The notes beneath the pieces were generated by a model. That model had not been told where the DNA came from. It worked only from the letters and a program-made list of their open reading frames with translations, and did not search any database. DNA of 18,858 nucleotides from an uncultured Pseudomonadota bacterium (GTDB lineage: Bacteria > SAR324 > NAC60-12), in NCBI GenBank assembly GCA_913020725.1, contig CAJWCD010000074.1, forward strand, positions 1-18,858. Direction: 5' to 3'. Shown here piece by piece: positions 1,001 through 17,897 of the stretch. The translations under genes and the position numbers were made by a program. Numbering within the stretch: position 1 is the first letter of the stretch; every line of letters starts with the position of its first letter.

Positions 1001-1015
1001 GTTCAGTGGTCTCCA

Positions 1016-1226
1016 TTACTGGTCTGCCCCCTTTGTTAGGCCCGTGGATTCCTGAGCCACTTTGATGAACGACAGCAATGCTTCATTGACTGCTTCTTCC
1101 GTGGGAAACACCAAGGCCACTTCTGGCCGGAGCAAAACCAAGTTGTGGGCTTCTTGGTAGGCTTCGTAGTACTTGCCACGAACCCCCTTGCCCAAGTCTT
1201 TCCTTGTGTACTCAGACCTCATTTCA

Positions 1227-1249
<23 letters not shown>
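1016..1249 (-). CDS. Putative antitoxin partner of the BrnT-family toxin (77 aa)
   Basis: The pattern DEMRSEY...GVRGKYY...NLVLLRPEVA..FP..EAVNEAL is typical of small proteins downstream of brnT. Its start overlaps the toxin 3' end. Confidence 0.7.
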
Positions 1250-1511
<262 letters not shown>

Positions 1512-1566
1512 TCACCAGTATTTGGAAAGTATCGTAGGGTACTGTAAAAAAGAGAGAACCACGAAT

Positions 1567-2331: not shown

Positions 2332-4180
2332 CGTTTGCTCCTGTGGTTTGGGTGCGCTTCCACAGGTTTTGGACAAAGCCCGCAATGCCCTGCGGGAAGG
2401 CTAGCACGAGGGCGATGATCAGGGTTCCCAACAGCAAGCGCCAGTACTCGAACCGCGAAATTTCGTCGTGCAGCCAAGTGAACACGGATGCGCCTGTGGC
2501 GGGTCCCCAGAGCGTTTTCACGCCGCCAAGCAGCACCATGATGAGGGCATCGAAGGAACGCGGAATCGCCATTTCGTCTGGAAACACGCTACCCTTGGAG
2601 AACACGAACAAGCCGCCTGCAATGCCGGCCATGAATCCGGAGAAGGCGAAGGCCAGCCACTGCTGACGAGAGACGTTGATGCCGATGGACGCACTGCGCA
2701 AGGCGGAATCCCGCACCGCCCGCATCGCATAGCCGAAGGGGGTGAAGAGGACGTGCCGCAAAATCAGGATGCCGCCGACTCCGGCGATGATCGTCAGGTA
2801 GTAGTACGCCATGCGGTCGCTCGCCCACGCGCTGGGCCAGATGCCAAGGATGCCGTCATCTCCTCCAGTCACGGCGTCCCACTGGAAAACGATGGACCAC
2901 GCGACTTGCGCGAAGGCCATCGTGAGCATCGCTAGGTACACTCCGCTCAGGCGCACACAGAACCAGCCCACAATCAGGGCCAGCACTCCGGCCATCAACG
3001 GGGCGAAGAGCAGCGCCACTTCCATCGGTGCTTCAAAGTGCTTGACCAGCAATGCCGCCGCATACGCGCCACCGCCAAAAAATGCGGCGTGTCCGAAGGA
3101 AACCATCCCACCCGGACCCATCGCAAAGTGCAGGCTGGCTGCAAACAGCGACATGATCACCATTTCGATGATCAGCACGAGAGTGAAGTCATCAGCAAAC
3201 GTGGGCAGCGCGAATAAGCCAACCACCAGTGCCATGCCGATCATGCGCAAATTACGCGAGGCGGTTTGATAAGGCAATTCTGGAGGACCGACCTGCCCGT
3301 GCTGTCCCGGAACTTCGGGTTTGCCCAACAGCCCCCAAGGACGCACGATCAGCACAATCGCCATCAGCGCGAACATCAAAACCAAGGTGCTTTCCGGCAG
3401 GATGAGGATGCCGAAGGCATTGCACTCGAAAATCAGCACGGATGCCAGATAAGCCCCAAAAATGCTGCCCATGCCGCCGACGACGACCACGACAAAAATT
3501 GCCGCCAAAATCTCAAAATCCATCAGCAGATTCGCTCCGCCCTTAGGCAACTGCGCAGCCCCACCAAGTCCGGCGAGCAGCGATCCCAGAAAGAAGGTGC
3601 CCGTGAACAGCCACGTCTGATTCACCCCCAGCGCTCCAACCATTTCCCGATCCTGTGTGGCGGCTCGCACCAAGCAGCCCCAGCGGGTGCGGTTGAAGAG
3701 AAACCACAGCGCCACCAGCACGACCAGACTGAGGGCAATCAGGGCGAGATCGTATTCTGGCAGAAGCGTGCCAAAAATGTTCACCGTGCTGTCAAGTCCG
3801 GGGGCCAGCGGTCCCAGCAAATCCTCCGCTCCCCAAACCAACAACGCCAAATCCTGAATCACCAGAATGACCCCAAAAGTAGCGACAAGCTGGAAGAGTT
3901 CCGGGGCTTGATAGACCCGGCGCAGGATGAGGATTTCAACCACCACGCCGATCAGACCCACTGCGATGGCGGAGAGCAGCATGGCGATCCAAAACCCCAT
4001 CACGCTGGTCAGGTGGCTCGTGAAAGTGTAGGCAAAAAACGCCCCCAACATGTAGAACGAACCGTGCGCGAAATTCACCACCCGGGTGACTCCAAAGATG
4101 ATCGACAACCCGGACGCAACCAGAAACACCGCTGCTGCGCTCGAAAGCCCGGTCAGCACTTGGACAATGAAAAATCCCAT
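2324..4180 (-). CDS. Fused LivH-LivM ABC permease (618 aa)
   Basis: The N-half has GLSIIFGVTRVVNFAHG and VVVGGMGS (LivH). The C-half has GMVSFGHAAFFG, GVYLAMLTMAF, TGGDDG and MVLLGG (LivM). Many hydrophobic segments. Confidence 0.9.
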   Translation of the reverse strand: MGFFIVQVLTGLSSAAAVFLVASGLSIIFGVTRVVNFAHGSFYMLGAFFAYTFTSHLTSVMGFWIAMLLSAIAVGLIGVVVEILILRRVYQAPELFQLVATFGVILVIQDLALLVWGAEDLLGPLAPGLDSTVNIFGTLLPEYDLALIALSLVVLVALWFLFNRTRWGCLVRAATQDREMVGALGVNQTWLFTGTFFLGSLLAGLGGAAQLPKGGANLLMDFEILAAIFVVVVVGGMGSIFGAYLASVLIFECNAFGILILPESTLVLMFALMAIVLIVRPWGLLGKPEVPGQHGQVGPPELPYQTASRNLRMIGMALVVGLFALPTFADDFTLVLIIEMVIMSLFAASLHFAMGPGGMVSFGHAAFFGGGAYAAALLVKHFEAPMEVALLFAPLMAGVLALIVGWFCVRLSGVYLAMLTMAFAQVAWSIVFQWDAVTGGDDGILGIWPSAWASDRMAYYYLTIIAGVGGILILRHVLFTPFGYAMRAVRDSALRSASIGINVSRQQWLAFAFSGFMAGIAGGLFVFSKGSVFPDEMAIPRSFDALIMVLLGGVKTLWGPATGASVFTWLHDEISRFEYWRLLLGTLIIALVLAFPQGIAGFVQNLWKRTQTTGANDA

Positions 4181-4201
4181 ATGATCTCAATAGATGTGGT
4201 T

Positions 4202-4252
4202 GGGGGGCCAGATCTAAATCCCCCCTGGCCCCCCTTTGAGAAAAAGGGGGGG
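4202..4252. repeat. G/C-rich inverted repeats (REP-like or mRNA-stabilising stem-loop) between the binding-protein and permease genes
   Basis: GGGGGGCCAG (4202-4211) pairs with CTGGCCCCCC (4225-4234). CCCCCCTTT (4229-4237) pairs with AAAGGGGGG (4243-4251). Confidence 0.6.
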
Positions 4253-4259
4253 CTTAGGG

Positions 4260-5471
4260 TCAGTTGGCCGCAGGACGCAGCTTGCGCACTTCGGCATCGG
4301 AGGGCAGGTAATCGGCCCCGTCCAGATAGGACCAGTTGACCATTATGCCCTTGCCGTCCTTTAGCTTGGTCCAGCCCAAGTAGGCGCCCATCGTGGACTG
4401 GTGGTCAAGCGCTCGGTAGTGGATGGAACCTGTCGGGGAGGAATACGTCAGCCCCTCCATCGCATCCACGAGCGCTTCCGTATCGGTTGACCCGGCCTTT
4501 TCGATGGCGGCTTTGATGCCGAGCATCGTGTTGTAGCCAACAATGGAACCGATGCGGGGATAGTCATTGTACCGCGCCTGATACGACTTAAGGAAGGCAT
4601 TGTGGGCTGGAGTGTTGATGGCATACCAAGGGTAGCCAGTGACAAGCCAGCCTTCCGGAGCTTCGCCCTTCAGTGGATCGAGGTATTCCGGCTCACCTGT
4701 GAGCAGTCCGACCATGAGCTTGCCACTGAAGAAACCCCGCAGTTTGCCTTCACGGGCGAACTTGGCGAGGTCCGAACCGAAGGTGACGTTGTAGACCGCT
4801 TCGGGCTTGGCGGCGCTGAGGGCTTGCACTTCTGCACCAGCGTCAATCTTGAAGAGCGCAGGCCACTGTTCGGCTACGAACTCGACATCCGGACGCAACT
4901 GCTTCAGCACTTTCTGGAACGCCGACACCGCGTCTTTGCCGTAGGCGTAGTTCGGGGCAATGGTCGCCCAGCGTTTTGCCGGGTTCTTTGCGGCTTGTTC
5001 GGCCAGCATTGAAGCCTGCATGTAGGTGGAGGGCCGCAACCGGAAGGTGTAGCGGTTCCCATTTGCCCACACAAGAGCATCGGCCAGCGGCTCGGCGGCG
5101 ACGTACAGCACCTTGCGTTGCCCGGCGAACGAAGTCAACGCCAACCCAATGTGCGAAAACAGCGACCCGGAAATCAGGGCAACGCGGTCCTTGGACACCA
5201 GTTCCTCGGCGATCTTCACGGCGTCGCCTGGTTTGCCGTTGTCGTCCCGCGAGACGAGTTCGAGCTTTTTGCCCAGCACCCCGCCTGCGGAATTGATGTG
5301 CTCCAGCGCCAGTTCCACACCCATCTTGTACGGGATGGTGTGGGCCGGCAGGCGCTTGTAGCTGTTGATGTCGCCGATCTTGATGGTTCCCCCGGCAGAT
5401 GCCGGAATCGCGATTCCGAGAGCGGCGATGCTTGCCACCACTGCGGAAAACAATTTCTTCCAGTTCAACAT
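4260..5471 (-). CDS. ABC transporter substrate-binding protein, Leu/Ile/Val-binding (type 1 PBP) family (403 aa)
   Basis: Signal peptide MLNWKK-hydrophobic-PASA, then IKIG, INSAGGVLGKKLELVSRDD and PNYAYG. A GAGGG SD precedes the ATG at 5471. The longer 5549 start would overlap the upstream gene. Confidence 0.9.
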   Translation of the reverse strand: MLNWKKLFSAVVASIAALGIAIPASAGGTIKIGDINSYKRLPAHTIPYKMGVELALEHINSAGGVLGKKLELVSRDDNGKPGDAVKIAEELVSKDRVALISGSLFSHIGLALTSFAGQRKVLYVAAEPLADALVWANGNRYTFRLRPSTYMQASMLAEQAAKNPAKRWATIAPNYAYGKDAVSAFQKVLKQLRPDVEFVAEQWPALFKIDAGAEVQALSAAKPEAVYNVTFGSDLAKFAREGKLRGFFSGKLMVGLLTGEPEYLDPLKGEAPEGWLVTGYPWYAINTPAHNAFLKSYQARYNDYPRIGSIVGYNTMLGIKAAIEKAGSTDTEALVDAMEGLTYSSPTGSIHYRALDHQSTMGAYLGWTKLKDGKGIMVNWSYLDGADYLPSDAEVRKLRPAAN

Positions 5472-5541
5472 GATCTTGTCCCTCATTGGTTTGATGCTGC
5501 GCACCAAACGTTTCCGCAAAATGCGGTAAATGGACGGTGGC

Positions 5542-6339
5542 CTAAGCAAAGGCCGCTCGCCCCCCCTTGAGCACCAAAGTGCTCCCCACGCTGGCCTCGA
5601 AAGCGAGACCAGCCGAAGTCGTGTTTGCCGTCACCTCCACCACAGTTCCGGGCAACACCGGACTGGAGAGACGGGCTTCAAGTTGTGTGAGATTGGCTGG
5701 ATGCGTTCCGGTTGCTTCTGAAATCATCCGTGCTGCGATCCCCAAGGTGCAAAGCCCGTGAAGAATCGGACGCTCAAATGAATTCGCAAGTGCGACTTCC
5801 GGATCAATGTGGATCGGGTGCAAGTCACCCGTCAGTCGGTAAAGCGCGGCTTGGTTCGGGGACGTCGCATAGCTTCCGGACCACGAATCCCCGGTTTTCT
5901 CATCCACCGGTGCAGACCCGCCGCCGCGATCACCCCCCCAGCCGCCAAGTCCGGGAAGGAAGATCCCATACGAAGCCGTGAAGTATTCGGACTCAACCGC
6001 AATGTCGAGCAACGCTGCCTTGCCCTTGTCCCACACTCCCGTGATCCGTCCAGTGGTTTCAATGGCTCCGGATTGAGGCAGGGATTGATGCACCACCAAG
6101 GATTGCGAGGCGTGCAGCGAAAACTTGCGGTCATACGCTCCAAGACCGCCTGCCGCTTCCACCGCCCAAAGCCCGAGGGCACAGGCGTAAGTCGGCAGCA
6201 CCCGCAAATCTCGCTCGTACACCAAATCAGTTTCCTCGCTGGATGCGCCGACTGCCAATGCGTAAAGAATCGCGTTCCGCTCCTCGTAGTGGACGATGCG
6301 CTGGCCAAGTTCATAGCCTTGCAGTTCAGGCAGTTTCAT
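5542..6339 (-). CDS. MaoC-like double hot-dog (R)-specific enoyl-CoA hydratase (MFE-2 hydratase type)
   Basis: ILYALAVGA, VYE..L.VLPT, WDKGKAA, and hydratase-2 motif YRLTGDLHPIHIDP...F..PILHGLCTLG. Confidence 0.85.
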   Translation of the reverse strand: MKLPELQGYELGQRIVHYEERNAILYALAVGASSEETDLVYERDLRVLPTYACALGLWAVEAAGGLGAYDRKFSLHASQSLVVHQSLPQSGAIETTGRITGVWDKGKAALLDIAVESEYFTASYGIFLPGLGGWGGDRGGGSAPVDEKTGDSWSGSYATSPNQAALYRLTGDLHPIHIDPEVALANSFERPILHGLCTLGIAARMISEATGTHPANLTQLEARLSSPVLPGTVVEVTANTTSAGLAFEASVGSTLVLKGGRAAFA

Positions 6340-6359
6340 AGTGCTTGATTTTTCGATTG

Positions 6360-6437
6360 AACCACAGAGAACACAGAGGCCACAGAGAATTGTTTTTATA
6401 GTTTTTTCTCTACCCCTCTGGACCCGCTGTAGTGGTT
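6360..6437. repeat. Short tandem CACAGAG repeat with a degenerate inverted copy (REP-like element)
   Basis: CACAGAG at 6363, 6372 and 6381 (9-bp period). Partial complements CTCT/CTCTG/GTGGTT lie at 6408-6437, and GTGGTT pairs with AACCAC at 6360-6365. Confidence 0.55.
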
Positions 6438-6485
6438 TTTTGTCAGGTTTCAGTGTTTTGAGAAATTAAAAATCTTTTATTTTCG

Positions 6486-7235
6486 TTATGGAATGCTAAG
6501 TCGTTCCTTGGCTTGGGCCACCGCTGCCTGCCGTTCCGGAGAACTCAGGATATTGACATAGATTTCTTTCCAATACGAAAGATTCTGCTCGCCCTGTTCC
6601 AAAGCGAGCAACAACGATTTGGTCGCGCCCACGGCTTTGGGAGCCTTCGCCATGTTCCGGACGAGTTCCAGCACCTTTTTACGGGTGGTACTTTCCGGAA
6701 CCACCCAGCCCACGAGGCCAGTGTGCAGGGCCGTTTGTGCATCCCAGCGTTCCCCCAGCAGCAACAAACGCATCAGTGCTCTGGAGCCCAAACGGGCGTG
6801 AAACTGGGCCACCGCATCCGGACTGTAAAGCAGGCCCAGCCTTGTCGCCGGAATCTGAAAAAAGGCACGCTCGGAGGCGACCAACGCGTCACACGCCAGC
6901 GCGACCGTCACGGCCCCGCCCACGCACGGTCCCTCAATGGCCGCAAGGCACGGCACGGGCAACGCCCGCATGAGTTGATTCACGCGCTGAATGCGTTCGT
7001 CAATTTCCTGATCTGCTACAGTTCCGGTGACATCGGAGAGGTCCGCTCCCACACTGAACGTCCCCTCTGCACCTTGCAGGATCACCGCTCTTAAATCCGA
7101 ATCACTCTGCAACCGCTCCAAGCCTTGCTCCAGTTCCGCGAGCAAGGCCAAGGAGAGGGCGTTCTTTTTGCGGGGATTGTTAAGCGTGAGGGTGCAAATC
7201 CCCTCCTGTTGTTCTGCTAGGATCAGTCCCGTCAT
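6486..7235 (-). CDS. Enoyl-CoA hydratase/isomerase (crotonase) superfamily protein (249 aa)
   Basis: TLNNPRKKNALS, FSVGADL, P..AAIEGPCVGGA, LACD, IPATRLGLLY. The start is set at the ATG at 7235, just after the amidase stop and behind AGGA. Confidence 0.88.
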   Translation of the reverse strand: MTGLILAEQQEGICTLTLNNPRKKNALSLALLAELEQGLERLQSDSDLRAVILQGAEGTFSVGADLSDVTGTVADQEIDERIQRVNQLMRALPVPCLAAIEGPCVGGAVTVALACDALVASERAFFQIPATRLGLLYSPDAVAQFHARLGSRALMRLLLLGERWDAQTALHTGLVGWVVPESTTRKKVLELVRNMAKAPKAVGATKSLLLALEQGEQNLSYWKEIYVNILSSPERQAAVAQAKERLSIP

Positions 7236-7239
7236 TGCT

Positions 7240-8637
7240 TCATTTCCTGTTTGCAAGTGTCCACTTTTTGCGGACGGGTGTGTCGTCAAAGGCCAACTCT
7301 GCTTCTAAATCTTCGGAAAGGTTGAGCAGCAGTTCCTCCGCGTTCCAAGGGGCGACCAACTGCAAGCCCACGGGCAAACCCTCGGAGAGACCGCACGGAA
7401 GCGACACCGCTGGATTCCCGGAGACATTGAACGGCGCTGTGAAAGGCACCGCACCCCACAGCCAACTCACGCGCTGTCCGTCAATTTCACGGGGACGTTC
7501 CCGCACCGGGAAGGCAGTGGTGGCCGTCACCGGAGTGGCGATCACATCGAAATCTGCGAAAAAATTCCGGAGTCGTTGCTGGTACTCGCGGTGGGCTTTT
7601 CTGGCGTTTTTCACATCCTCCGCCGTGATTGCTTGTCCGGCTTCCAGCGACTTGCGTTCGTATGCGGTCAACTGCTCCGGAGCCTGCTTCAGCAAGTGCC
7701 CGCGTTCCCGCTGTTCCTCGGCCAAAACGAGTGTGTCGAACGCAGCATTCCAGCCTGCGAGCGGAAGCGGGGTTTCACGGACATCATGCCCCAATCTGGA
7801 CAATTGCCCCACCGCAACCTCGACCACTTGGGCGACTCCGGCAGCGACAGGGCGGTCTTCCGGCCTTGGACACCACACCACCCGCAGCTTTTGTCCGTTG
7901 AGGGATTGGCGGGCGTACTTGCGTTCGGCCAGCACTTCAAGGATGTTTCGAGCGTCCGCCACACAACGGGTGAGCGGGCCGGGCGCGATGAAGTCCGACA
8001 TCGCCCGAAAACCTTTCTCGTTGGAGCAAAGTCCGTAGGTGGGTTTGATGCCGAACAAGCCCGAGAATGCAGCAGGAATCCGGATCGAGCCTCCGCCATC
8101 CGCGCCGATGGCTGCCGTTGCCAAACCTGCCGCAACGGAAGCCGCCGCCCCGCCGCTGGAGCCTCCTGGAGTGTGGGACGTGTCCCACGGATTGCGGGCA
8201 TCGTCGCCCAAACGGTTGTCCGTGGTCGCGGACTGCCCGAACTCTGCGGCGTTGGTCTTGCCCGGAAAGACGGCTCCAGCCGCCCGCAAGCGTTTCACCA
8301 GCCCACAGTCCTGTTCTGTGCGGTTCTCCCGGTAGAGTGCAGAACCGTAAGTGGTGATCGATCCCGCCAACTCGAAGGTGTCCTTGATCGAAATTGGAAT
8401 GCCGCACAACGGCGGAATTTCCACCGTCGGCTTTCGGAAAAGACGCTCTGCGGTCTTGGCCTGCTCACGGGCTTGCTCATCCAAACAGTCGAGGTAGGCA
8501 TTCAGCGATGGATTGAAACGAGCTATCCGGGCCAAGGTTTCCTCCAGCACCTCGACCGGGGACAACTCACCTCGGCGAAACGCTTCCCGAAGCCGTGTGA
8601 TGGGCCACCAGAGCGGGCTGTCCTCCTGCTCAGGCAT
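7240..8637 (-). CDS. Amidase signature family enzyme (465 aa from MPEQED)
   Basis: Ser-cisSer-Lys triad motifs: GIPISIKD, PGGSSGGAAA, GADGGGSIRIPAAFSG; also GKTN and RNPW. The start overlaps the SDR stop (ATGCCTGA). Confidence 0.92.
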   Translation of the reverse strand: MPEQEDSPLWWPITRLREAFRRGELSPVEVLEETLARIARFNPSLNAYLDCLDEQAREQAKTAERLFRKPTVEIPPLCGIPISIKDTFELAGSITTYGSALYRENRTEQDCGLVKRLRAAGAVFPGKTNAAEFGQSATTDNRLGDDARNPWDTSHTPGGSSGGAAASVAAGLATAAIGADGGGSIRIPAAFSGLFGIKPTYGLCSNEKGFRAMSDFIAPGPLTRCVADARNILEVLAERKYARQSLNGQKLRVVWCPRPEDRPVAAGVAQVVEVAVGQLSRLGHDVRETPLPLAGWNAAFDTLVLAEEQRERGHLLKQAPEQLTAYERKSLEAGQAITAEDVKNARKAHREYQQRLRNFFADFDVIATPVTATTAFPVRERPREIDGQRVSWLWGAVPFTAPFNVSGNPAVSLPCGLSEGLPVGLQLVAPWNAEELLLNLSEDLEAELAFDDTPVRKKWTLANRK

Positions 8638-9388
8638 GGGGACTGACCCCGCCGCTGACGGTGAAGACTTCCCCGGTGATGTAGCCTGCCTTGTCACTGA
8701 CAAGGTAGGACACCATGTCGGCCACATCCTGTGGTTGTCCGACTCGTCCCACGAGCGAGCGGTTTTCCGCATAGCCCTCAAAGAACTCGTCCGGATAGAT
8801 TTTCCGCAGGAAGTCGTTGTAGATCAGTCCGGGGGAGACGCAGTTGACGCGGATGCCGTGCTTGCCGTTTTCGGCGGCGGCCACGCGGGTCAGCGCGAGA
8901 ATCCCCGCCTTGGCGGCAGAGTAAGCCGCTCCGTGTTCGGTCGAGGTCTCCCACGCAGCAATCGAGGAGATGTTGATGACTACTCCGGAACGCCGCTCGA
9001 TCATCTGCGGTAATGCCTGCCTCATGCAGTTGAAGGTGCCGTTGAGGTCCACGTCAAGGCAGCGTAGCCACGTCTCCTGCGACATCTCCGCCACCGGTTC
9101 CAACTTGTTCCAGCCTGCGTTGTTGACCAGCACGTCCAGCCGTCCGTGCTGCTCGATGATTTCCTGAACTACGGCGTCCACCGCGTCAAAATCCGTCACG
9201 TCCAGCGGTTTCGACAAAAACTCGCGCCCGTGTTTTTCGGAAAGCTCTGAGGCCAGTTCGCCACAACGCCGCTCGTGCGCATCCGTGATCACGACATCAA
9301 AGCCGTCATCCGCGAGTTGCCGGGCGATGGCCGCCCCAATGCCTGCTCCTGCCGCCGCTGTGACCAGTGCCACTTTTCGTTCAGTCAT
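8630..9388 (-). CDS. Classical short-chain dehydrogenase/reductase, resembling the IpdF/Rv3559c type (252 aa)
   Basis: VTAAAGAGIG, TDAHERR, LVNNAG, NISS, catalytic YSAAK, NCVSPG. The Asp after beta-2 suggests NAD(H). Confidence 0.9.
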   Translation of the reverse strand: MTERKVALVTAAAGAGIGAAIARQLADDGFDVVITDAHERRCGELASELSEKHGREFLSKPLDVTDFDAVDAVVQEIIEQHGRLDVLVNNAGWNKLEPVAEMSQETWLRCLDVDLNGTFNCMRQALPQMIERRSGVVINISSIAAWETSTEHGAAYSAAKAGILALTRVAAAENGKHGIRVNCVSPGLIYNDFLRKIYPDEFFEGYAENRSLVGRVGQPQDVADMVSYLVSDKAGYITGEVFTVSGGVSPHA

Positions 9389-9747
9389 GTTTGTTTGGAA
9401 AAGAAAGTTCAAGAACAACGCATCCCATGTCTGTATTGAACGGGCCGTGTATCTCGCCCGGGGGACGGCTTGCGTAGTGCCCCGTTTCTAACCACAGACC
9501 AAAAGCCTGATCATTAGAGGCTGCCACTGACAATCAAGACTTCTTCGGGGTATTCATGGCTTTTCCCGCCAAAGGAGGATGTGTCCGCTCCGGGGAGAAA
9601 TCAAGTCAAACGAGTGTATTCGCCCGTGTCCACATCAATGCTTAATGTCAGTTCTTCTACAGTTCCTTCCAGACCATCAATCCATTGCCACTCCCCTTTG
9701 TGTTCTGAATGCAGTGGATTCCAGTAGGTTTCGGTTGTTTTAGCCAT
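9381..9747 (-). pseudogene. Cupin-domain protein (ChrR-like) disrupted by a nonsense codon and a +1 frameshift
   Basis: A GAGG SD precedes the ATG at 9747. The sequence reads MAKTTETYWNPL...DTGEYTRLT*FLPGADTSSFGGKSHEYPEEVLIVSGSL, then after removing one A at 9514/9515 YDQAFGLWLETGHYASRPPGEIHGPFNTDMGCVVLELSFPNKHD*. TGA is at codon 49 (9603-9601). The repaired length is 121 aa and the stop overlaps the SDR start. Confidence 0.82.
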
Positions 9748-9762
9748 TCGTTTAACCTCGTT

Positions 9763-10767
9763 TTAGTTATCCTGAAGGGCCGGGATCACCTTGCTTCCCA
9801 ACTCCTCCAAGCGGCGGATTCGCCCACCGGAAAGCAGCGCGAAGGTGATGCGGTCGATGTCGAGCTTGGCGACTTCCTTGAGCTTGGCCACGCAACTCTC
9901 GAAATTCCCGGCAACCGTGACCGATTTGACGAATTCCTCACTGACAATCTGCTTGTGCTCGGCCCGCAGGGAGAGGTGTTCCTCGTAGTGGTACGCCTGC
10001 TCGGCGGTGGTGAATTCCTCCCGGAAACGTTCCCATGCGGGTGGGACTTTCTTCCAGACCGCGAACGTTGCCGCCTGACTCGTGGCCCAGGCCCGCACAT
10101 CGTTGAGCGCCTGCTCTTCGTCATCGTCAATGCTCATGGTGACGATCAGATCAATGAGAATGTCGCTGCGCTGGCGTCCGGCCTTTTCGAGTCCCTGGTA
10201 GATGTAATCAAGTTGCCAGTTGCAGAAATCCGGATCGGCGGCTCCCATCAGGATCGCGCCGTCGCAGATTTCTCCGCAAAGCCGCAGCATTCCCGGTTGG
10301 GAGACCGCCAGATAGATTGGAATCTGTCGCCGCGCCGTGGCCATCCGCACCTTCGTGCCGTAGAGTTCGGCTTCCTCTCCGGTGAAGAGCTGGCGGAATG
10401 CGTTGATACCCTGCCGGACCTCGGCAAGTTTGTCGGGCATTTTCCCAATCGAATGCACCGCCACCCAGCCTGCGCCGAGTCCGAGCATGGCGCGGTCGTT
10501 GGAAAGCTCGTCGAGCGCAGTCGTGGCGTTGGCCGTGACTGTCGGATGTCGTGTTTGCAGGTTGGTGACGGCAGAGCCGATGTGGATTTTCTGCGTCGCC
10601 AGCGCAGCCACGTTCATCGCTGCGTAAACGTCCTTCATGCCAAGCTGGTGGTCAATGAACCACAACGCCTCAAAGCCGTTGGCCTCCACCGCTTTGGCGA
10701 TTTCAGAGACCTGATCGAAGGTTTCGCGGGGACTGACCCCACGGGAGATGCCAAATCGATTGACCAT
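9763..10767 (-). CDS. LLM-class oxidoreductase, Mer-like, probably F420-dependent
   Basis: WFIDH...DVY, IGSAVTNLQTRHPTVTANA..LDELS.DRAMLGLGAG, IPIYLA...P.MLRLCGEICDG match the Mer-like LLM pattern. F420 use is inferred from the adjacent cof/npdG genes. Confidence 0.85.
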   Translation of the reverse strand: MVNRFGISRGVSPRETFDQVSEIAKAVEANGFEALWFIDHQLGMKDVYAAMNVAALATQKIHIGSAVTNLQTRHPTVTANATTALDELSNDRAMLGLGAGWVAVHSIGKMPDKLAEVRQGINAFRQLFTGEEAELYGTKVRMATARRQIPIYLAVSQPGMLRLCGEICDGAILMGAADPDFCNWQLDYIYQGLEKAGRQRSDILIDLIVTMSIDDDEEQALNDVRAWATSQAATFAVWKKVPPAWERFREEFTTAEQAYHYEEHLSLRAEHKQIVSEEFVKSVTVAGNFESCVAKLKEVAKLDIDRITFALLSGGRIRRLEELGSKVIPALQDN

Positions 10768-11552
10768 CAGTTTTGCCTTTGTAATGCGGTGTGAATTGCG
10801 GTTGCGTAAGCTTCGGGTTGATCAACACTCAGCAAGTGCCCGGCATTGGCCACTTCCTGATAGCTGCCGTTGGGGAGTTCCGCGAGCATGATGTCGGCGG
10901 CCTTGCGGGGACAGAAGACATCCGCTGTACCTCCGATCACACTGACGGGGCACTGAATTTTTGCTAACAACGGAGTGAGCGGGTTTTCGTGCAAACGCAT
11001 CATCGCCCGTGAGGCGTTCACATAGCCACCGCCGTTACCGACCGCCTCCAGTCGTCCGGCGGTGACGGCTTCCAGATCGACTGCGGAGTTGACGATTTGC
11101 AGCGCGGTGTCTTTTTGTAACGCAGGAGCGAAGGCGTCAAAATCCTGTTCGATCATGCGAATGCGCTCATCGAAAAAACCGACCGCCTGCCGTCCGACCA
11201 CTGTTGAGGTTCCGGTAACGACCGCCGCCGTGACCAGCTCCGGACGCTGCATCGCAGTCCACAGCACAAGGGTGCCTCCGAGCGAATAGCCCACGCATTG
11301 GGCCGGGCCAGTGACTTGCTCCAGAAAGGCAATCAGGTCGCTGCCCAATTGCTCTAGTGTGCCGTCGGCCTCGCCGAGCGTGGTTTCGCCGTGCCCCCGG
11401 AAATCGTAGGCAAGGGTACGGAAATCCTCCAACCAGTCTTGCACACCGGACCAGCTTGTCTTGTCCTCGGCAAGTCCGTGGATCAGCACGACCGGAGGGC
11501 CAACGCCCTGAACCGTGTAGGCCACCTCAAGGTCTCCGAGCTGGATTTTCAT
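10767..11552 (-). CDS. Alpha/beta fold hydrolase, PcaD (enol-lactone hydrolase)-like (261 aa)
   Basis: LIHG oxyanion motif, YDFRGHG, nucleophile GYSLGG, GTAD acid and AGH histidine. ATGA overlap with the ligase stop and TGATG overlap with the LLM start. Confidence 0.88.
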   Translation of the reverse strand: MKIQLGDLEVAYTVQGVGPPVVLIHGLAEDKTSWSGVQDWLEDFRTLAYDFRGHGETTLGEADGTLEQLGSDLIAFLEQVTGPAQCVGYSLGGTLVLWTAMQRPELVTAAVVTGTSTVVGRQAVGFFDERIRMIEQDFDAFAPALQKDTALQIVNSAVDLEAVTAGRLEAVGNGGGYVNASRAMMRLHENPLTPLLAKIQCPVSVIGGTADVFCPRKAADIMLAELPNGSYQEVANAGHLLSVDQPEAYATAIHTALQRQN

Positions 11553-13207
11553 GCTGCTCCGTTTTCCGCTTCCGATGCTTTTACGATCTGATCCCGCAGG
11601 ACGGCTTTGCGAATCTTGCCCGCTGGAGTCGTGGGGAACCCGTCCACGATCCGGAGCAGTTCCGGGCAGTGGTACTTGGGCAGCCCCTTGGCTTGCAGGA
11701 AGTCGCTGAGGCTCTCCAGCGTGGGAGCTTCGCCCTTCGGAATGATCACGGCGCAAAGCCGTTCCCCCATCCGTTCGTCCGGGTAACCCACGACTGCGAC
11801 ACCGGAAACGTGGGGATGGCTCGCCAGCGCGTCTTCAATGGGCACGGGAGCGATGTTGACTCCGCCGCGGATGATCAAATCCTTGAGACGCCCCGTGATC
11901 CGGAGGTAGCCGTCTTCACTGAGGATGGCTAAATCTCCGGTGCGGAAAAAACCAGCTTCCGTCAGCAACGACTCGTAAAGCTCTTCCTGCCCGTAGTAGC
12001 CGATGAAGACTCCGGGGCCGCGCACCACCAATTCGCCTTGCTCACCCGTAGGGAGCAGTTGGTTCTCCGAGTCGAGGATTTTCATTTCCAGTCCGGGCAA
12101 GCCGACTCCGGCGGTGGTCAGGGTTTTCTCGATAGGGGTTCCGCCCAAAGCAGTGGTCAGTCCGCCTTCGGTCATGCCCCAAAGTACAGTGACGAAGGTG
12201 TTGGGGAATTGCGCTTTGGCCCTTTGCATCAGCACCGGAGGCACCTGTGCCCCGCCGCAGAGAAACCAGCGCAGTGAAGCCAATTTCGGCTGATCGCTCT
12301 TCCAGTTCGCCTCCACCAAGTCCTTGAGGAACGGCGTGGCCGCAGCGGTGAAGACACAACCATACTCCGCGATCATCGTCAGTGCCTCTTGTGGATTCCA
12401 GACGTCCTGAAGCACCAGTGGCGCGCCGTTGTAGAGCGAGAGTCTGGCCCCATGAATTGTGCCGACGCTGTGCCCCAACGGCGAGGCCATGAAGATCGGA
12501 TCATGTGGCCCTAGCGAAAAACGCTCTGTGAAGGTGAGGTTCAGTGCTGCCAGCGTGTCGGCGCTGTGCATGACCGCCTTCGGACGCCCCGTTGTGCTGG
12601 AGGTGAACATAAGGTGATCAAGCTTGGCAACACTTGGTGCAGACGGAAGTGGCTTATCCGAACTCTCCATCCAACTCTGTGAGTTTTCGCCCACGAGCAG
12701 CATATCGATGCGATGCCTGCAAAGCTGTGTGGCAGAGTGGGCGGTCTCCCCCGTGGCTGCGGAACCGTGTCGTTCCGTCGTGATGATCCCACGCGCACCC
12801 GTGAGTTCTACAACATAACAGAGGTTGTCTGCGTCAATGCGTGTGGGCAGGTTCGCAGGAATGCCACCCATCCGGAGGATCGCCAGCAGGGCGACTTGCC
12901 ACTCCACCCAGTTCGGCAGGAACAGGATGATCACCTCGCCTTCACGCAGCCCTCGCTGCCTGAGTGTGTCCGCCAATGCTCCGGATGTTGACCAGAGTTC
13001 GCTGTGCGTCAGTCGCTGTCCCCGGTTGTCCGCAACCGCCAAGTCGCCACCTCGCTTTGTGACGATGCTCGCGTAGCGGTCTTGCAGGAGTTCCCCCGTC
13101 CACCAGCCTTGCTGACGATACCCCTGCTCACGTTGCAAGGTTTTGGTTAGGGAATCACGGTTGCCCTGTTTCTTCATTACTACCATTCTTGCATTTTCAT
13201 CGGCCAT
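11549..13207 (-). CDS. AMP-forming acyl-CoA synthetase, cyclohexanecarboxylate-CoA ligase-like
   Basis: FTSSTTGRPKAVMH, SPLGH, WGMTEG, FFRTGDL, GRLKDLIIRGG, PDERMGERLCA, PTTPAGKIRK; N-terminal YRQQGWW. The start could be one of the nearby downstream ATGs. Confidence 0.88.
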   Translation of the reverse strand: MADENARMVVMKKQGNRDSLTKTLQREQGYRQQGWWTGELLQDRYASIVTKRGGDLAVADNRGQRLTHSELWSTSGALADTLRQRGLREGEVIILFLPNWVEWQVALLAILRMGGIPANLPTRIDADNLCYVVELTGARGIITTERHGSAATGETAHSATQLCRHRIDMLLVGENSQSWMESSDKPLPSAPSVAKLDHLMFTSSTTGRPKAVMHSADTLAALNLTFTERFSLGPHDPIFMASPLGHSVGTIHGARLSLYNGAPLVLQDVWNPQEALTMIAEYGCVFTAAATPFLKDLVEANWKSDQPKLASLRWFLCGGAQVPPVLMQRAKAQFPNTFVTVLWGMTEGGLTTALGGTPIEKTLTTAGVGLPGLEMKILDSENQLLPTGEQGELVVRGPGVFIGYYGQEELYESLLTEAGFFRTGDLAILSEDGYLRITGRLKDLIIRGGVNIAPVPIEDALASHPHVSGVAVVGYPDERMGERLCAVIIPKGEAPTLESLSDFLQAKGLPKYHCPELLRIVDGFPTTPAGKIRKAVLRDQIVKASEAENGAA

Positions 13208-13259
13208 CTCATGGCATGAGGCTCTATGATACCAAGGCTTTTGGGGAAATCAAGAGAGC

Positions 13260-13299
13260 GATGTCACTTTTTTTATTGTATGATGTCACTTTTTTTATT
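13260..13299. promoter_or_regulatory. Perfect 18-bp direct repeat (22-bp period), candidate operator
   Basis: GATGTCACTTTTTTTATT at 13260-13277 and 13282-13299, in the divergent intergenic region. Confidence 0.7.
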
Positions 13300-13304
13300 A
13301 TGAT
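13276..13304 (+). promoter_or_regulatory. Putative sigma70 promoter for tetR-npdG-cofE-cofD
   Basis: TTGTAT (13276-13281) - 17 bp - TATGAT (13299-13304). Confidence 0.65.
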
Positions 13305-13331
13305 CCGAATCAGATTAATCCAGATTGCAAC

Positions 13332-14030
13332 TTGGTGACGAAATTCAAGCAAGAACAGACCGTGCGGCCACTGAAGAAAAACGAAAGCCCCCTTGTCATT
13401 CCTCCCACGATCAAAGGGCAGCGCACCCGTAGTCACATCCTCAATTGTGCCCGCAAGGTTTTTGCACGGGTGGGGTACGTCACCCTGACGATGCTGGAGG
13501 TTGCCAAGGAATCCAAGGTGTCAATGGGGGCACTTTACCGCTACTTCCAGAACAAGGATGATTTATTCATCAATTTGGTCGGCAGCATCCACGAGGATCT
13601 GTTCCGAGCCAGCCGTGCCACCGAAAATGATTTTGCAGCGGACCCGTATCATGCGTTGCTAGAAGCGAACCGGGGCTACCTGACGCACTACTACGAGAAC
13701 CGCGACGTGATGCGGGCACTGATCGAGGCGACTACTGTTAACCTGCAGTTCCGGGATCTGTGGTGGCGGATGCGGAACCGTCATGTGGATCGCTTTGTTC
13801 ATGCGCTCAAACAATCGCATGGGATTGAGACTGTGGAAGGTGTGCCCGTCCGTGCCGTGACGGAGGCAATGGCCTCGCTGGTCGAACAGAGCGCGTACAC
13901 TTGGTTTGCACAGGAAAAATTGAACGCTGAACTGGTTTCAGTGGACACGGCGGCACAGGTGGTGACGAGCATCTGGTACCGAGCTTTTCTTGGTGATGAA
14001 GTGTCCACAGCTTTTTTAAAAGAAAATTGA
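13332..14030 (+). CDS. TetR/AcrR family transcriptional regulator
   Basis: KGQRTRSHILNCARKVFARVGYVTLTMLEVAKESKVSMGALYRYFQNKDDLF is a TetR HTH. The start is uncertain (TTG 13332, GTG 13335 or GTG 13362). Confidence 0.9.
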   Translation: MVTKFKQEQTVRPLKKNESPLVIPPTIKGQRTRSHILNCARKVFARVGYVTLTMLEVAKESKVSMGALYRYFQNKDDLFINLVGSIHEDLFRASRATENDFAADPYHALLEANRGYLTHYYENRDVMRALIEATTVNLQFRDLWWRMRNRHVDRFVHALKQSHGIETVEGVPVRAVTEAMASLVEQSAYTWFAQEKLNAELVSVDTAAQVVTSIWYRAFLGDEVSTAFLKEN

Positions 14031-14031
14031 A

Positions 14032-14691
14032 ATGTCAGGCACGGAACAGATGATTGCAGTGATTGGAGGAACCGGAGGTTTGGGTTCTGCCTTGGCGTAC
14101 CGCTGGGGTAAGGCGGGCCACAAGATTTTCGTGGGTTCGCGCAGTGCGGAAAAAGCCGAGCTTACTGCCGCCGAACTCAACGCACGCTTGGGAACACAGA
14201 CCGTGTGCGGCCTGACGAATCAGGAAGCAGCGGCGGCCGCAGAAATTGTGGTGCTGACGGTGCCGTTTGCCAACCACGAGGCGATTGTCGAAGACATCAC
14301 GGAAGCCGTGCAGGGCAAGATCGTGGTGGACACGACCGTTCCGCTGGTGCCTCCAAAAGTGAGCCGCGTCCAGCTTCCAGAAGGGGGATCGGTTGCCAAG
14401 CGGACTCAGGAAAATCTTGGGGAAAACGTGCGCGTGGTTTCTGCATTCCAAACCGTCGCGGCGGCGCACTTGGCCGAGGATGGGCCTGTGGAAGGCGAGG
14501 TGCTGGTGTGCGGCAACAACGTGGAGGCTCGCACGGTTATCCTAGCGCTCGTCGAAGCTGTTGGGTTGAAGGGGTGGCACGGTGGTCCCATTGACAACTC
14601 GGTGGTCAGCGAATCGCTCACGCCCCTGTTGATCTTCATCAACAAACGCTACCAGCTCAACGGGGCCGGAATCCGCATCGTCGGGCATTAG
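14032..14691 (+). CDS. npdG: NADPH-dependent F420 reductase (F420H2:NADP+ oxidoreductase)
   Basis: IAVIGGTGGLG, VGSRS.EKA, VVLTVPF, KIVVDTTVPL, VVSAFQ, ESLTPLLIFINKRY...AGIRI. Confidence 0.9.
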   Translation: MSGTEQMIAVIGGTGGLGSALAYRWGKAGHKIFVGSRSAEKAELTAAELNARLGTQTVCGLTNQEAAAAAEIVVLTVPFANHEAIVEDITEAVQGKIVVDTTVPLVPPKVSRVQLPEGGSVAKRTQENLGENVRVVSAFQTVAAAHLAEDGPVEGEVLVCGNNVEARTVILALVEAVGLKGWHGGPIDNSVVSESLTPLLIFINKRYQLNGAGIRIVGH

Positions 14692-14694
14692 CGC

Positions 14695-15486
14695 ATGACT
14701 CCCTCCAGCCGCCGCCAGCCATCGCCCCCTCTGACACTGACCGCGCTGCCCGGAATGCCGTTGGTTCGGCCCGGAGACGATTTGGTTGCAGACATTCTCA
14801 AGAGCCTGAAGCAGGCAGCACTTGTCTTGGTGGATGGGGACATTCTCGTAATCGCACAGAAAATCGTCTCCAAATCAGAGGGGCGCACTGTCAGGCTGGA
14901 GGATGTGCAACCCTCACAACGGGCACATGAGTTGGCGGAGGTGACGGGCAAGGATCCGCGTCTGGTGGAACTGATGCTCTCGGAAGCCCGCGAAATCGTG
15001 CGGCACCGCCCCGGAGTGATCATCGCAGAGAACCGGCAGGGTGTGGTGCTGGCCAATGTGGGCATTGACCATTCGAATGTCGAAGCCGATGGTGATGCCG
15101 AACAAGTGCTGCTGCTGCCTGTCGATCCGGACGCTTCGGCAGCAAGCATCCACAAAGCACTTCAGGAGCAAACCCAAGTTAACATCGCCGTGATCATCAA
15201 CGACAGCCTCGGACGCGCTTGGCGTAACGGCACCGTGGGCACGGCGCTTGGGGTGTCCGGACTGCCTGCGTTGCTGGACTTGCGGGGTCAGCCCGACCTC
15301 TTTGGGAATCCTTTGCGGGTGAGCGAACAGGCGCTTGCCGATGAACTGTCGTCTGCGGCGTCGCTGCTGCAAGGTCAGGCGGCGGAAGGCCGACCTGTCG
15401 TGTTGATCCGGGGTTATGCCGCCTCCGCTCCCCCCACTCCGGCCACGGCCTTGATCCGTCCCAAGGAAAAGGATTTGTTTCGATGA
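14695..15486 (+). CDS. cofE: Coenzyme F420-0:L-glutamate ligase, stand-alone without a nitroreductase domain
   Basis: P.VRPGDDL, QKIVSKSEGR, ANVGIDHSN, LLPVDPDASA, DSLGRAWRNG, ADELSSAA, KDLFR C-terminus. Confidence 0.93.
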   Translation: MTPSSRRQPSPPLTLTALPGMPLVRPGDDLVADILKSLKQAALVLVDGDILVIAQKIVSKSEGRTVRLEDVQPSQRAHELAEVTGKDPRLVELMLSEAREIVRHRPGVIIAENRQGVVLANVGIDHSNVEADGDAEQVLLLPVDPDASAASIHKALQEQTQVNIAVIINDSLGRAWRNGTVGTALGVSGLPALLDLRGQPDLFGNPLRVSEQALADELSSAASLLQGQAAEGRPVVLIRGYAASAPPTPATALIRPKEKDLFR

Positions 15487-16454
15487 ACACCTCGGCGGCT
15501 TCTCCAAGCGTTCTAGCACTTTCCGGAGGAATCGGCGGGGCCAAGCTCGCGCTGGGGCTGACTCAGGCCATGCCTCCTGAAAAGTTGCTGATCGTTGGCA
15601 ACACCGGAGACGATTTCGAGCATTTGGGACTGCACGTCTCCCCGGATTTGGACACGCTGATGTACACGCTTTCTGGCAAGGCCGATCCGGAAAAGGGTTG
15701 GGGCTTGGCCAGCGAATCGTGGGCGTTCATGCAGGCGCTGGAAGCCTTGGGCGGCGAGACGTGGTTTCAGTTGGGAGACGGGGATTTGGCGACGCATGTG
15801 GAGCGCACCCGCAGGCTCCGGGCAGGCGAGTCTCTCACCGAGATCACCTCGGATTTCTGCCGATGCCTAGGCATTGTGTCCCGGATTGTTCCCGTCAGTG
15901 ATGATGCGGTGCGCACCATCGTAGAAACTCCGGACGGTGATTTGGCCTTCCAGCACTACTTTGTGCGCGAACGTTGCCAGCCCACCGTGTCCGGTTTTCG
16001 CTTTCAAGGCGCGGACGCCGCGCAACCGAATCCGCTTTTTGGGGAGGCTCTTCGCAATCCATCCCTGCAAGCGGTGGTGGTTTGCCCCTCGAATCCGTTC
16101 CTCAGCATCGATCCGATTCTTGCGGTGCGAGGAGTCCGGGAGGCGTTGCGGACCTGTTCTGCGCCTGTGATCGCGGTTTCTCCGCTTGTCGGCGGCGATG
16201 CCGTCAAAGGTCCGACTGCGAAAAATCTGCGGGAACTCGGGCATCCGGTGTCCGCAACCACCGTCGCCAACTACTATCGGGACTTCCTTGACGGCTTTGT
16301 TGTGGATACGCGAGACAAAGCCACGGTTCCAGAAATCGAGAAGCTTGGGTTGAGCGTGGAAGTCACCGACACCCTGATGACCGACTTGGCATCCAAAGCG
16401 GCTCTGGCCAAAACTGTGCTGGCGTTTGCTCAACGTTGCAGAGCTAAACGGTGA
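15483..16454 (+). CDS. cofD: 2-phospho-L-lactate transferase (CofD/FbiA)
   Basis: LSGGIGGAKL, NTGDD, SPDLDT, WFQLGDGDLATH..RT, FQHYFV, PSNPFLSIDPIL, VKGP. ATGA overlap with cofE. Confidence 0.94.
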   Translation: MNTSAASPSVLALSGGIGGAKLALGLTQAMPPEKLLIVGNTGDDFEHLGLHVSPDLDTLMYTLSGKADPEKGWGLASESWAFMQALEALGGETWFQLGDGDLATHVERTRRLRAGESLTEITSDFCRCLGIVSRIVPVSDDAVRTIVETPDGDLAFQHYFVRERCQPTVSGFRFQGADAAQPNPLFGEALRNPSLQAVVVCPSNPFLSIDPILAVRGVREALRTCSAPVIAVSPLVGGDAVKGPTAKNLRELGHPVSATTVANYYRDFLDGFVVDTRDKATVPEIEKLGLSVEVTDTLMTDLASKAALAKTVLAFAQRCRAKR

Positions 16455-16473: not shown

Positions 16474-17001
16474 TCAATCCCCCTCAAATTCGATCAACGT
16501 CCGCACAGGCACATTCATTTCCTCCAATTTTTTTCGACCTCCAAGGTCCGGAAGATCAATGATGAAACTGGCCCCAACCACATTACCGCCTGCTTCTCTT
16601 ACAAGCTTGGTGGCCGCGCAAGCCGTGCCTCCAGTAGCAATCAAGTCATCGATCAAAATGATTTGGTCTCCCTTTTCAATGCTGTCGATATGAATCTCCA
16701 TCTCATCGGTCCCGTATTCTAATTGATACTCTGCTGAGATGGTTTGCCAGGGGAGTTTGCCTTTTTTGCGGATGGCGACAAAACCCACGGAGAGCTGATG
16801 CGCGACTGCTCCCCCCAAAATAAAACCGCGAGCTTCAATCCCGGCGACTCGGTTGACGCCCGCACCTGCAAAAGGCTGGACCAGCATGTCAATGGAATAC
16901 CGAAACCCAACGGGGTGTTGCAAAAGCGTGGTGATGTCCCGGAAGATGATTCCGGGTTTCGGGTAGTCGGGAATGGACCGGATGAGTTGTTCGAGGTTCA
17001 T
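16474..17001 (-). CDS. apt: Adenine phosphoribosyltransferase
   Basis: [34 protein letters not shown]-binding [11 protein letters not shown]. Confidence 0.96.
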
Positions 17002-17897
17002 TTCTGCTCCTGTGGTTTGAGAAGACGACCAGCAATGGCGTCAAATTTTTTCAGGAATTCGGGATCCCGTTTCTCCGGTGCCGTAATCAAGGCGACTTCG
17101 AGGGCGCGATCATCTCCGGAAGGACAAATCGCCGGGCGCTCCTTCATGCGTGGGGCCACTTGCTTGACCAGCGTGCGGGCTTTGTCCGCATTGGTCATCA
17201 ACACGCGGATCAAAGCGTCCACCTCGACGTTGTCGTGGTCCGGATGCCAGCAGTCGTAATCCGTGACCATCGCGACCGTGCAGTAGGGGATTTCCGCCTC
17301 ACGGGCGAGCTTGGCTTCCGGCATGTTCGTCATGCCGATGACATCGCAGCCCCATTGCCGATAAAGGTTCGACTCCGCAAGCGTTGAAAACTGCGGGCCT
17401 TCCATCGCCAGGTAGGTGCCCCCGCGATGCACCGTGATGCCCTCACTCCGGCAAGCCTCCTCGCACCAGTCGGCGAGACGGGAATTGGTCGGGTGCGCTA
17501 CGGAGACATGGGCCACCAGTCCGGTTCCGAAAAAACTCTTTTCCCGCGCAAAGGTACGGTCAATGAACTGGTCCACAATGACAAAATGTCCCGGCGCAAG
17601 CTCGTCACGAAACGAGCCGACCGCTGAAAGTGAAATGAGGTCCGTGACACCAGCGCGTTTGAGGGCGTCAATGTTGGCGCGGTAATTGATGCTGGAAGGA
17701 CTCAAGCGGTGCCCCCGTCCGTGCCGGGGCAGAAAAACCATCTGGACTCCATCCAGACTGCCAAACAACAACTCGTCGGAAGCCTCCCCCCATGGGGTTT
17801 CCACTTTGCGCCATTCCACGTTTTCCAGTCCGTCGATTTCGTAGATGCCGCTTCCGCCAAGGACACCGAGCGTCGGTGCCGGATGCAGGTCGCTCAT
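16998..17897 (-). CDS. mtnP: S-methyl-5'-thioadenosine phosphorylase
   Basis: [64 protein letters not shown]. Confidence 0.93.

Follow-up and report, generated by a model that had tools for sequence, protein, structure and literature searches.

The 18,858-nucleotide window analysed here, which is the entire contig C74 of its source genome (G000; 3.45 Mb, 204 contigs, 93% complete), carries a run of catabolic genes divergent from a tetR gene that is followed by genes for the cofactor F420. The catabolic arm is a conserved operon, beyond what chance would give, and probably represents a real, undescribed variant of nicotinate catabolism that depends on F420 and coenzyme A (CoA). It belongs to a cross-phylum cluster whose carriers range from SAR324-type bacteria of the sea to actinomycetes of the soil and whose likely function is the breakdown of vitamin B3 (nicotinate). 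In the route that we favor, at a probability of about 0.5, the operon would degrade nicotinate via 6-hydroxynicotinate, CoA activation, and reduction by F420H2 to glutaryl-CoA, CO2, and ammonia.

The central enzyme is a luciferase-family hydride transferase (here LLM, for luciferase-like monooxygenase family). Scanning GTDB genomes gave 150 confirmed relatives, of which the best 80 loci were kept for neighborhood counts; many of these loci are cut by contig ends and many are closely related, so the counts overstate independence. The genes and divergent arms named in the first-pass annotation were all present in the list of open reading frames (ORFs) and in the family scans, as follows (fractions are loci with the gene):

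11549-13207, minus strand: acyl-CoA ligase (AMP-binding), in the FadK/cyclohexanecarboxylate-CoA ligase neighborhood, under cut-offs; 67/80
10767-11552, minus strand: PcaD-like Ser hydrolase (alpha/beta-hydrolase); best NCBIfam models PcaD, under cut-off; 68/80
9763-10767, minus strand: LLM, Mer-like (PF00296); best models Mer and TIGR03842, all under cut-off
8630-9388, minus strand: short-chain dehydrogenase/reductase (SDR); best NCBIfam model PRK07831 (240 vs. cut-off 336), PDB 3O38 at E 8e-52; 62/80
7240-8637, minus strand: amidase-signature enzyme (PF01425); 58/80
6486-7235, minus strand: crotonase-fold protein (PF00378); 45/80
5542-6339, minus strand: MFE-2-type double-hot-dog enoyl-CoA hydratase (MaoC; PF01575 and PF22622); 42/80
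299-5486, minus strand: four-gene HAAT-family ABC transporter (Pfam); 19/80
4260-5486, minus strand: its binding protein, E 2e-151 to PDB 3I45
2324-4180, minus strand: its fused permease
1567-2331 and 299-1000, minus strand: its ATPases
13226-13298, minus strand: divergent control region with two tandem operator copies (13250-13276 and 13272-13298) and a sigma-70-like promoter
13332-14030, plus strand: TetR/EthR-like regulator (PF00440 and PF21313); 42/80
14032-14691, plus strand: npdG (F420:NADPH oxidoreductase), over its NCBIfam equivalog cut-off
14695-15486, plus strand: cofE, over its NCBIfam equivalog cut-off
15483-16454, plus strand: cofD, over its NCBIfam equivalog cut-off
18074-18727, plus strand: cofC, separate from cofD, over the TIGR03552 cut-off

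Most junctions in the left arm overlap or abut, as the first-pass annotation had described, with a gap of 146 bp between crotonase and maoC. The transporter is co-oriented with this arm and extends it beyond the part originally annotated. The LLM subfamily is tight: identity is 69-91% for the 120 best homologs and drops to about 40% at the next tier of a 50%-cluster library. Outside Binatia there are 70 loci, and in 37 of them the LLM has the full set of six partner enzymes around it; these loci span SAR324, Alpha- and Gammaproteobacteria, and Actinobacteria. Carriers include Acidimicrobiia, Gordonia (e.g., G. amarae NBRC 15530), Nocardioides (e.g., sp. Root140), Prauserella (e.g., P. flavalba), and Pseudonocardia (e.g., P. 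thermophila DSM 43832). The arrangement exceeds chance because the gene order is the same across phyla and the operator is conserved. The closest named relatives of the window are SAR324/Deltaproteobacteria metagenome-assembled genomes, and seawater and vent metagenomes hold nearly identical DNA. Metatranscriptome contigs from four studies map to the transporter, catabolic, and cof genes; they were not counted as expression because DNA carry-over is not excluded.

The transporter gave the best clue to the substrate. The ligand of PDB 3I45 is presumably nicotinic acid; the assignment made here relies on gene context. Orthologs of the binding protein occur on 29 plasmids, and all four annotated plasmids that were read place them in nicotinate clusters, which represent two unrelated kinds of pathway, with 51-65% identity to the window protein. 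Two of the four pair the transporter with a gene annotated as 6-hydroxynicotinate reductase, a UPF0280 gene, a molybdenum (Mo) enzyme, and an enamidase ortholog; the other two pair it with genes that we read as the maleamate route, a Mo dehydrogenase and an FAD monooxygenase (nic names assigned here), one of them also with a dioxygenase-hydrolase-isomerase-amidase set. Since both route types share the carrier, it most simply binds nicotinate or 6-hydroxynicotinate, and the window transporter, judged by this kinship, likely takes up one or both. A search of plasmids gave no LLM ortholog (best match 31%).

Further links come from nicotinate dehydrogenase (Ndh) and 6-hydroxynicotinate reductase (Hnr). 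The SAR324 locus L018/L095 has the operon lodged between an ndh-hnr-UPF0280-transporter group and an enamidase gene (E 1.9e-111 to 2VUN). At L019, a nicotinate-dehydrogenase ortholog (54%) directly follows maoC, and that genome gave no Hnr and no enamidase match; Ndh without Hnr is what is expected if the LLM replaces Hnr. In G046, npdG-cofE-cofD-cofC and ndh-hnr stand back to back; the same genome has a second, paralogous LLM operon next to a Mo hydroxylase. In G042, ndh-hnr lies about 7-13 kb past the locus. Mo-hydroxylase genes of three types occur in 11/80 loci. The source genome has its ndh-hnr pair outside the window, on contig C36, with 90%-cluster members named 6-hydroxynicotinate reductase; there (C36:7943-10032, L161) the pair is followed by an NAD-type dehydrogenase and a PRK08269 3-hydroxybutyryl-CoA dehydrogenase, with enamidase absent from that place. 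No enamidase match was found in G000 at its 93% completeness. Likewise, 12 of 14 Hnr-bearing carriers lack an enamidase of more than 44% identity, the enamidases of annotated nicotinate clusters being 65-70% identical; among carriers, a plausible ortholog is present only in G005 and G090. Finally, a glutaryl-CoA dehydrogenase gene (E 2e-172) directly follows crotonase in seven actinobacterial loci. The substrate, for which the first-pass annotation offered no candidate, can be narrowed by the transporter, ndh-hnr, and glutaryl-CoA dehydrogenase context to nicotinate or a close pyridine carboxylate.

In the proposed route, each of seven enzymes would be used once. The transporter would bring in nicotinate or 6-hydroxynicotinate, and a Mo hydroxylase (on C36 in G000, beside the operon in others) would convert the former to the latter. 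The ligase, for which aryl-acid adenylating enzymes rank as top matches, is predicted to be a (6-hydroxy)nicotinate-CoA ligase; as a CoA ester, the ring would accept hydride more readily. The LLM, predicted from sequence and model to be an F420H2-dependent ring reductase of the CoA ester, would then transfer a hydride to yield 1,4,5,6-tetrahydro-6-oxonicotinoyl-CoA in place of the ferredoxin-type Hnr; NpdG, drawing on NADPH, or else Fgd would regenerate the F420H2. Where Hnr is also encoded, as in G000, its product could enter through the ligase.

The middle steps, whose order is uncertain, would hydrate C2=C3, oxidize C2, open the ring, and free ammonia to give 2-carboxyglutaryl-CoA, replacing enamidase. 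MaoC (Asp172 and His177 invariant, 12/12 aligned) is predicted to hydrate the ene-lactam or enamine CoA ester, and the SDR to oxidize the hydrated ester with NAD(P). The hydrolase, with its triad Ser90/Asp211/His239 invariant in 14/14 aligned sequences, is the predicted ring-opening enzyme of an ene-lactam or cyclic imide; it resembles the enol-lactone hydrolase PcaD, and the reduced pyridine ring corresponds to an enol-lactone with nitrogen in place of oxygen. The amidase (Lys83/Ser158/Ser182 invariant, 12/12 aligned) is predicted to release the ring nitrogen as ammonia. A crotonase lacking the hydratase glutamates would last decarboxylate 2-carboxyglutaryl-CoA to glutaryl-CoA for glutaryl-CoA dehydrogenase: at the positions of PaaF Glu109/Glu129, the first is variable and the second is Ala or Ser in 10/10 aligned sequences. 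Its predicted role as a malonyl-CoA-type decarboxylase (or deformylase) comes from comparison with ScpB, where Tyr140 and His66 are presumably catalytic; the invariant Tyr137 aligns with Tyr140, His66 is not kept, identity is 21-26%, and methylmalonyl-CoA decarboxylase is only the ninth PDB match. The amide-first order of the first-pass route is less probable than one that begins with ligation and reduction.

Several observations weigh against the 6-hydroxynicotinate route, beginning with the overstated independence of the locus counts. The nicotinate-type transporter is present in only 19/80 loci, with unrelated carriers elsewhere; a fused Ndh ortholog was found in only 15/53 carrier genomes, Hnr in 14/54, and the second Mo type in 5/53. 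Gordonia aichiensis G074 gave no PF02738 match, that is, no Mo-hydroxylase match, and the five genomes tested for NicB gave no ortholog above 40%. The decarboxylase assignment of the crotonase hangs on a single aligned tyrosine, and in G000 no operator above 20 bits lies upstream of ndh-hnr. Ten Binatia loci have the LLM without the partner enzymes, and gammaproteobacterial metagenome-assembled genomes have a short ligase-hydrolase-LLM-transporter form for which no SDR and no MaoC ortholog was found genome-wide in the five genomes tested for each (one of the MaoC genomes being Binatia).

The missing Mo hydroxylase bears most on a route in which nicotinate (or N-methylnicotinate, trigonelline) is degraded without prior hydroxylation, F420H2 dearomatizing nicotinoyl-CoA to a dihydropyridine. 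We hold this unlikely, and equally doubtful is the sequel, in which hydration and oxidation would give a lactam, followed by opening and deformylation or decarboxylation to glutaryl-CoA, with Ndh/Hnr as a mere side entry. It is nonetheless the bolder rival because one carrier, G074, has the whole operon and fbiC with no Mo-hydroxylase match, but that strain might obtain 6-hydroxynicotinate by scavenging, and part of its genome may be missing from the assembly. A recognizable nicotinate dehydrogenase is absent from most carriers; the operon often has as a neighbor a second amidase or an isochorismatase (called "nicotinamidase-related" by one source); methylamine-assimilation genes, including a type III glutamine synthetase over its cut-off, follow it in gammaproteobacterial L054/L055:14801-19080; and L037 and L062 have betaine-type carriers nearby. 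Three unrelated Mo hydroxylases recruited beside the operon, and the pairing of the operon with Ndh in the absence of Hnr at L019, count against this rival. On our own chemical reasoning, a neutral pyridine ester would also be a poorer hydride acceptor than F420H2 easily drives. Were direct reduction nevertheless correct, a pyridine-CoA would be dearomatized by an F420H2 hydride without O2, a Mo enzyme, ferredoxin, or an ATP-driven reductase; the cluster might then, at similarly long odds, found a cross-phylum F420/CoA family for pyridine carboxylates and, in seawater, sponges, and soil, act as an overlooked sink for vitamin B3 and trigonelline.

Different transporters at most loci could also mean that the operon acts on another cyclic acid that yields glutaryl-CoA, such as picolinate or homarine, a reduced piperidine or tetrahydropyridine acid, or an alicyclic acid, and that nicotinate genes adjoin it through co-occurrence or shared uptake. 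The best models of the ligase, FadK and cyclohexanecarboxylate-CoA ligase, and the SDR's closeness to PRK07831 fit that explanation, as do paralogous operons with an LLM about 40% identical (L084, L153), whose existence implies that the family covers several substrates. We rate it as improbable, since four separate links lead to nicotinate (the transporter, the L018/L095 embedding, the Ndh of L019, and the cof genes beside ndh-hnr in G046), and the conserved core has no thiolase or aminotransferase. Steroid C/D-ring degradation, to which an IpdF-like SDR presumably points, and the Rut and tetramethylpyrazine pathways were dropped; the remaining genes of each are absent from the conserved core.

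F420 dependence of the LLM, on which the 6-hydroxynicotinate route relies, is strongly implied by gene distribution and a Mer-like fold. We found cofD in 50/50 LLM-carrying genomes, 48 over cut-off (50 of the 80 loci were submitted, with a preference for Proteobacteria, and kin are not independent), vs. 33/201 evenly drawn Alphaproteobacteria, two of which carry the LLM. In its AlphaFold model (pLDDT 89), the top eight fold matches are Mer, with TM scores of about 0.8; in sequence searches the top six are Mer (E 5e-34, 27-28% identity), at scores under the curated Mer models (NF002619, 156 vs. 276; TIGR03555, 151 vs. 349). Together with the operator between the arms, these data bear out the first-pass suggestion of an F420-dependent, CoA-linked pathway, and the outcome it had named as contrary, left-arm clusters common in genomes without cof genes, did not occur. 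Trigonelline and tetramethylpyrazine oxygenases are FMN/O2 monooxygenases. That the LLM is another, with incidental F420 genes, is very improbable: every F420 family model falls below cut-off for it and its family includes F420 and FMN cofactor types (accessible part of PMC6279831), but the cofD distribution, the best match to Mer in sequence and fold, a conserved core without flavin reductase, and npdG, fbiC, cof, or fgd genes adjoining the LLM in SAR324, alpha-, gammaproteobacterial, and actinobacterial loci all speak against it.

The further claim that the pathway has its own cofactor supply rather than a housekeeping one is only partly true. The tetR/npdG/cofE/cofD junctions are 1 bp, 3 bp, and overlapping, and because these genes abut tetR, npdG-cofE-cofD are likely co-transcribed by read-through from it. 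The window LLM may be the main F420 client in G000, since FMN-type models are the best match for the three other LLMs of the genome. On the other side, F420 genes lie within 10 kb of the LLM in only 9/80 loci, across four lineages; cofC and fbiC (the latter on contig C123) lack an operator above 20 bits; and cofC, cofD, cofE, and npdG of the window are the sole copies in G000. Among 41 kin genomes, cofD is over cut-off in 19 and an LLM ortholog present in only three, so that 16 of the 19 cofD-positive genomes lack the LLM. The congener G002 kept npdG-cofE-cofD beside half a tetR (L097:8702-9013) and lost the catabolic arm, with no close match there to LLM, ligase, or transporter. The genes apt and mtaP (MTA phosphorylase; window 16474-17897, minus strand) split cofD from cofC, likewise in G001 and G002, whereas in the sister SAR324 loci L015/L016 tetR-npdG-cofE-cofD-cofC-fbiC forms one uninterrupted run. 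Near fbiC of G000 are a sugar-type ABC set and a small pyridoxamine-oxidase-like gene (L106:677-1243, on C123), which also stands next to cofC in L098-L101 of other SAR324 genera and is a possible second F420 client.

Both operator copies lie in the 124-bp gap between ligase and tetR. A promoter scan placed a sigma-70-like promoter (13253-13226) facing the ligase, with its -35 hexamer overlapped by the stronger copy. A matrix trained on 23 distinct sites, the window site included, scored them at 42.9 and 26.6 bits, with the next best site anywhere else in G000 at 19.1. The motif is common to SAR324, alphaproteobacterial, and actinobacterial loci and tracks those containing tetR. In five actinobacterial genomes, 11/11 matches to a degenerate pattern fell inside the cluster (reversed control, 0), and scans of five alphaproteobacterial genomes returned the cluster site in four plus two one-mismatch sites. 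Many loci have additional copies upstream of transporter genes. TetR is likely a repressor binding this predicted operator. A wider regulon in G000 was rejected: no operator above 20 bits was found outside the window, nor at cofC within it, and because no other site exceeds that score, the regulon probably does not include cofC, fbiC, or ndh-hnr.

Variant arrangements were also seen. In the Binatia loci (L066, L069, L070, L072, L075, L079, L081, L085, L087, and L093), the LLM is 68-70% identical, the ligase is absent, and the neighbors are RidA, cupin, deacetylase, amidase, and SnoaL-like genes. In Thermoleophilaceae, L040:3479-11781 and L051 have operators before an acetoacetate-CoA ligase and before a hydrolase-amidase-Mo subunits-LLM-SDR run; in G077, of this variant, no ortholog of the window ligase was found. 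A third operator in Gordonia aichiensis (L036:2131-4442) lies upstream of a 485-codon ORF and an isochorismatase. The paralogous operons L153 (G046:C47) and L084:7707-11834 combine an LLM 40-44% identical with hydrolase, SDR, and ligase, L153 additionally with crotonase, Mo hydroxylase, and amidase; isomeric pyridine acids, e.g., isonicotinate or picolinate, are candidate substrates.

One gene that the first-pass annotation had counted into the run does not belong to it:

9381-9747, minus strand: ChrR-type cupin pseudogene, with an in-frame stop and a frameshift; Cupin_7 at E 1.5e-4, under cut-off

A first Pfam scan of the cupin pieces gave no match. The insert is real DNA, covered by reads in 4/4 other DNA runs from seawater and vents; no alternative letter is listed at the stop in 4/4, and the frameshift is absent in 2/4. 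The LLM-SDR spacing is -6 to 85 bp in all 62 loci with both genes, vs. 374 bp in the window, and none has a cupin in between, so we rejected it as a pathway gene: it is a species-specific broken insert, missing from relatives. Likewise absent from sister loci is an insert that separates the two ABC ATPase genes (window 1016-1508, minus strand): a bacterial BrnT toxin gene, split into two ORFs (both PF04365) and followed by a small ORF.

The gene combination had been put forward as undescribed, and the literature searched, which left most subscription journals and supplements outside, gave no description of the operon or of catabolic nicotinoyl-CoA; subscription papers may bear on this. The accessible part of PMC3511419 names three routes by which bacteria handle 6-hydroxynicotinate, to which a fourth would be added. 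In that of PMC8498797, picrate is the catabolic example for the luciferase-like hydride transferases (LLHTs), most of which have no known function, and "nicotinate" and "SAR324" do not occur. If correct, our reading would supply a natural substrate for a catabolic F420 hydride transferase, partly explain F420 in marine SAR324 and sponge symbionts, and mean added competition for a vitamin that is exchanged in the ocean; a ring reductase of CoA esters might also serve as a biocatalyst to make piperidinones. Direct tests are feasible, since the operon is present in four cultured strains and the model predicts substrate, product, operator, and labeling pattern.

At entry and exit the proposed route would resemble the reductive nicotinate pathway, in its redox step the picrate hydride transferases, and in its lower half the opening of cyclic enoyl-CoA rings; as tested, the operon belongs to none of the three. 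The reductive nicotinate pathway via 1,4,5,6-tetrahydro-6-oxonicotinate (Eubacterium barkeri, Azorhizobium caulinodans, and other proteobacteria) uses Ndh, Hnr, and enamidase. It shares with the operon the transporter family, the proposed entry at 6-hydroxynicotinate, the oxidation level of the reduced ring, and an end at the level of glutarate, which is the end of the Azorhizobium route (accessible part of PMC3511419). The operon differs in lacking Hnr and enamidase and would use CoA esters and an F420H2 hydride, not ferredoxin. The Azorhizobium route reportedly loses the nicotinate carboxyl as CO2, whereas the operon would retain it as the thioester carbon and release ring C2 as CO2.

Probably the nearest chemical precedent is the isonicotinate pathway of Mycobacterium sp. 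INA1, which reportedly runs from citrazyl-CoA to 2,6-dioxopiperidine-4-carboxyl-CoA with tricarballylate as product. It is said to share Mo hydroxylation, CoA activation of a hydroxypyridine acid, and ring reduction, but acts on another isomer and leads to tricarballylate rather than glutaryl-CoA. We know of no genes or F420 role assigned to it; the paralogous operons L084 and L153 are candidates for such chemistry. Ring opening from cyclohexanecarboxylate or benzoyl-CoA (AliA, BadK, BadH, BadI) follows a similar logic of ligase, hydratase, SDR, and crotonase to glutaryl-CoA. However, the ligase scores 341 vs. the AliA-type cut-off of 792 (TIGR03208) and so is not AliA-type, and the operon adds an amidase, an F420 reductase, and a MaoC-type hydratase to a core without thiolase. 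For the maleamate pathway (nicC/X/D/E/F), NicC, NicX, NicD, and NicE had no match in the 80 LLM loci, and weak NicF-like matches occurred in two. Mer itself (EC 1.5.98.2, F420-dependent methylene-H4MPT reductase) resembles the LLM in sequence and fold; the LLM, in contrast, sits in a CoA catabolic operon, at 27-28% identity and below the Mer cut-offs. The picrate and dinitrophenol hydride transferases of Rhodococcus and Nocardioides (NpdC/NpdI) share the LLHT family, an NpdG partner, and hydride transfer to an electron-poor aromatic ring (accessible part of PMC8498797); they act on free nitroaromatics, whereas here a CoA thioester would activate a natural N-heteroaromatic.

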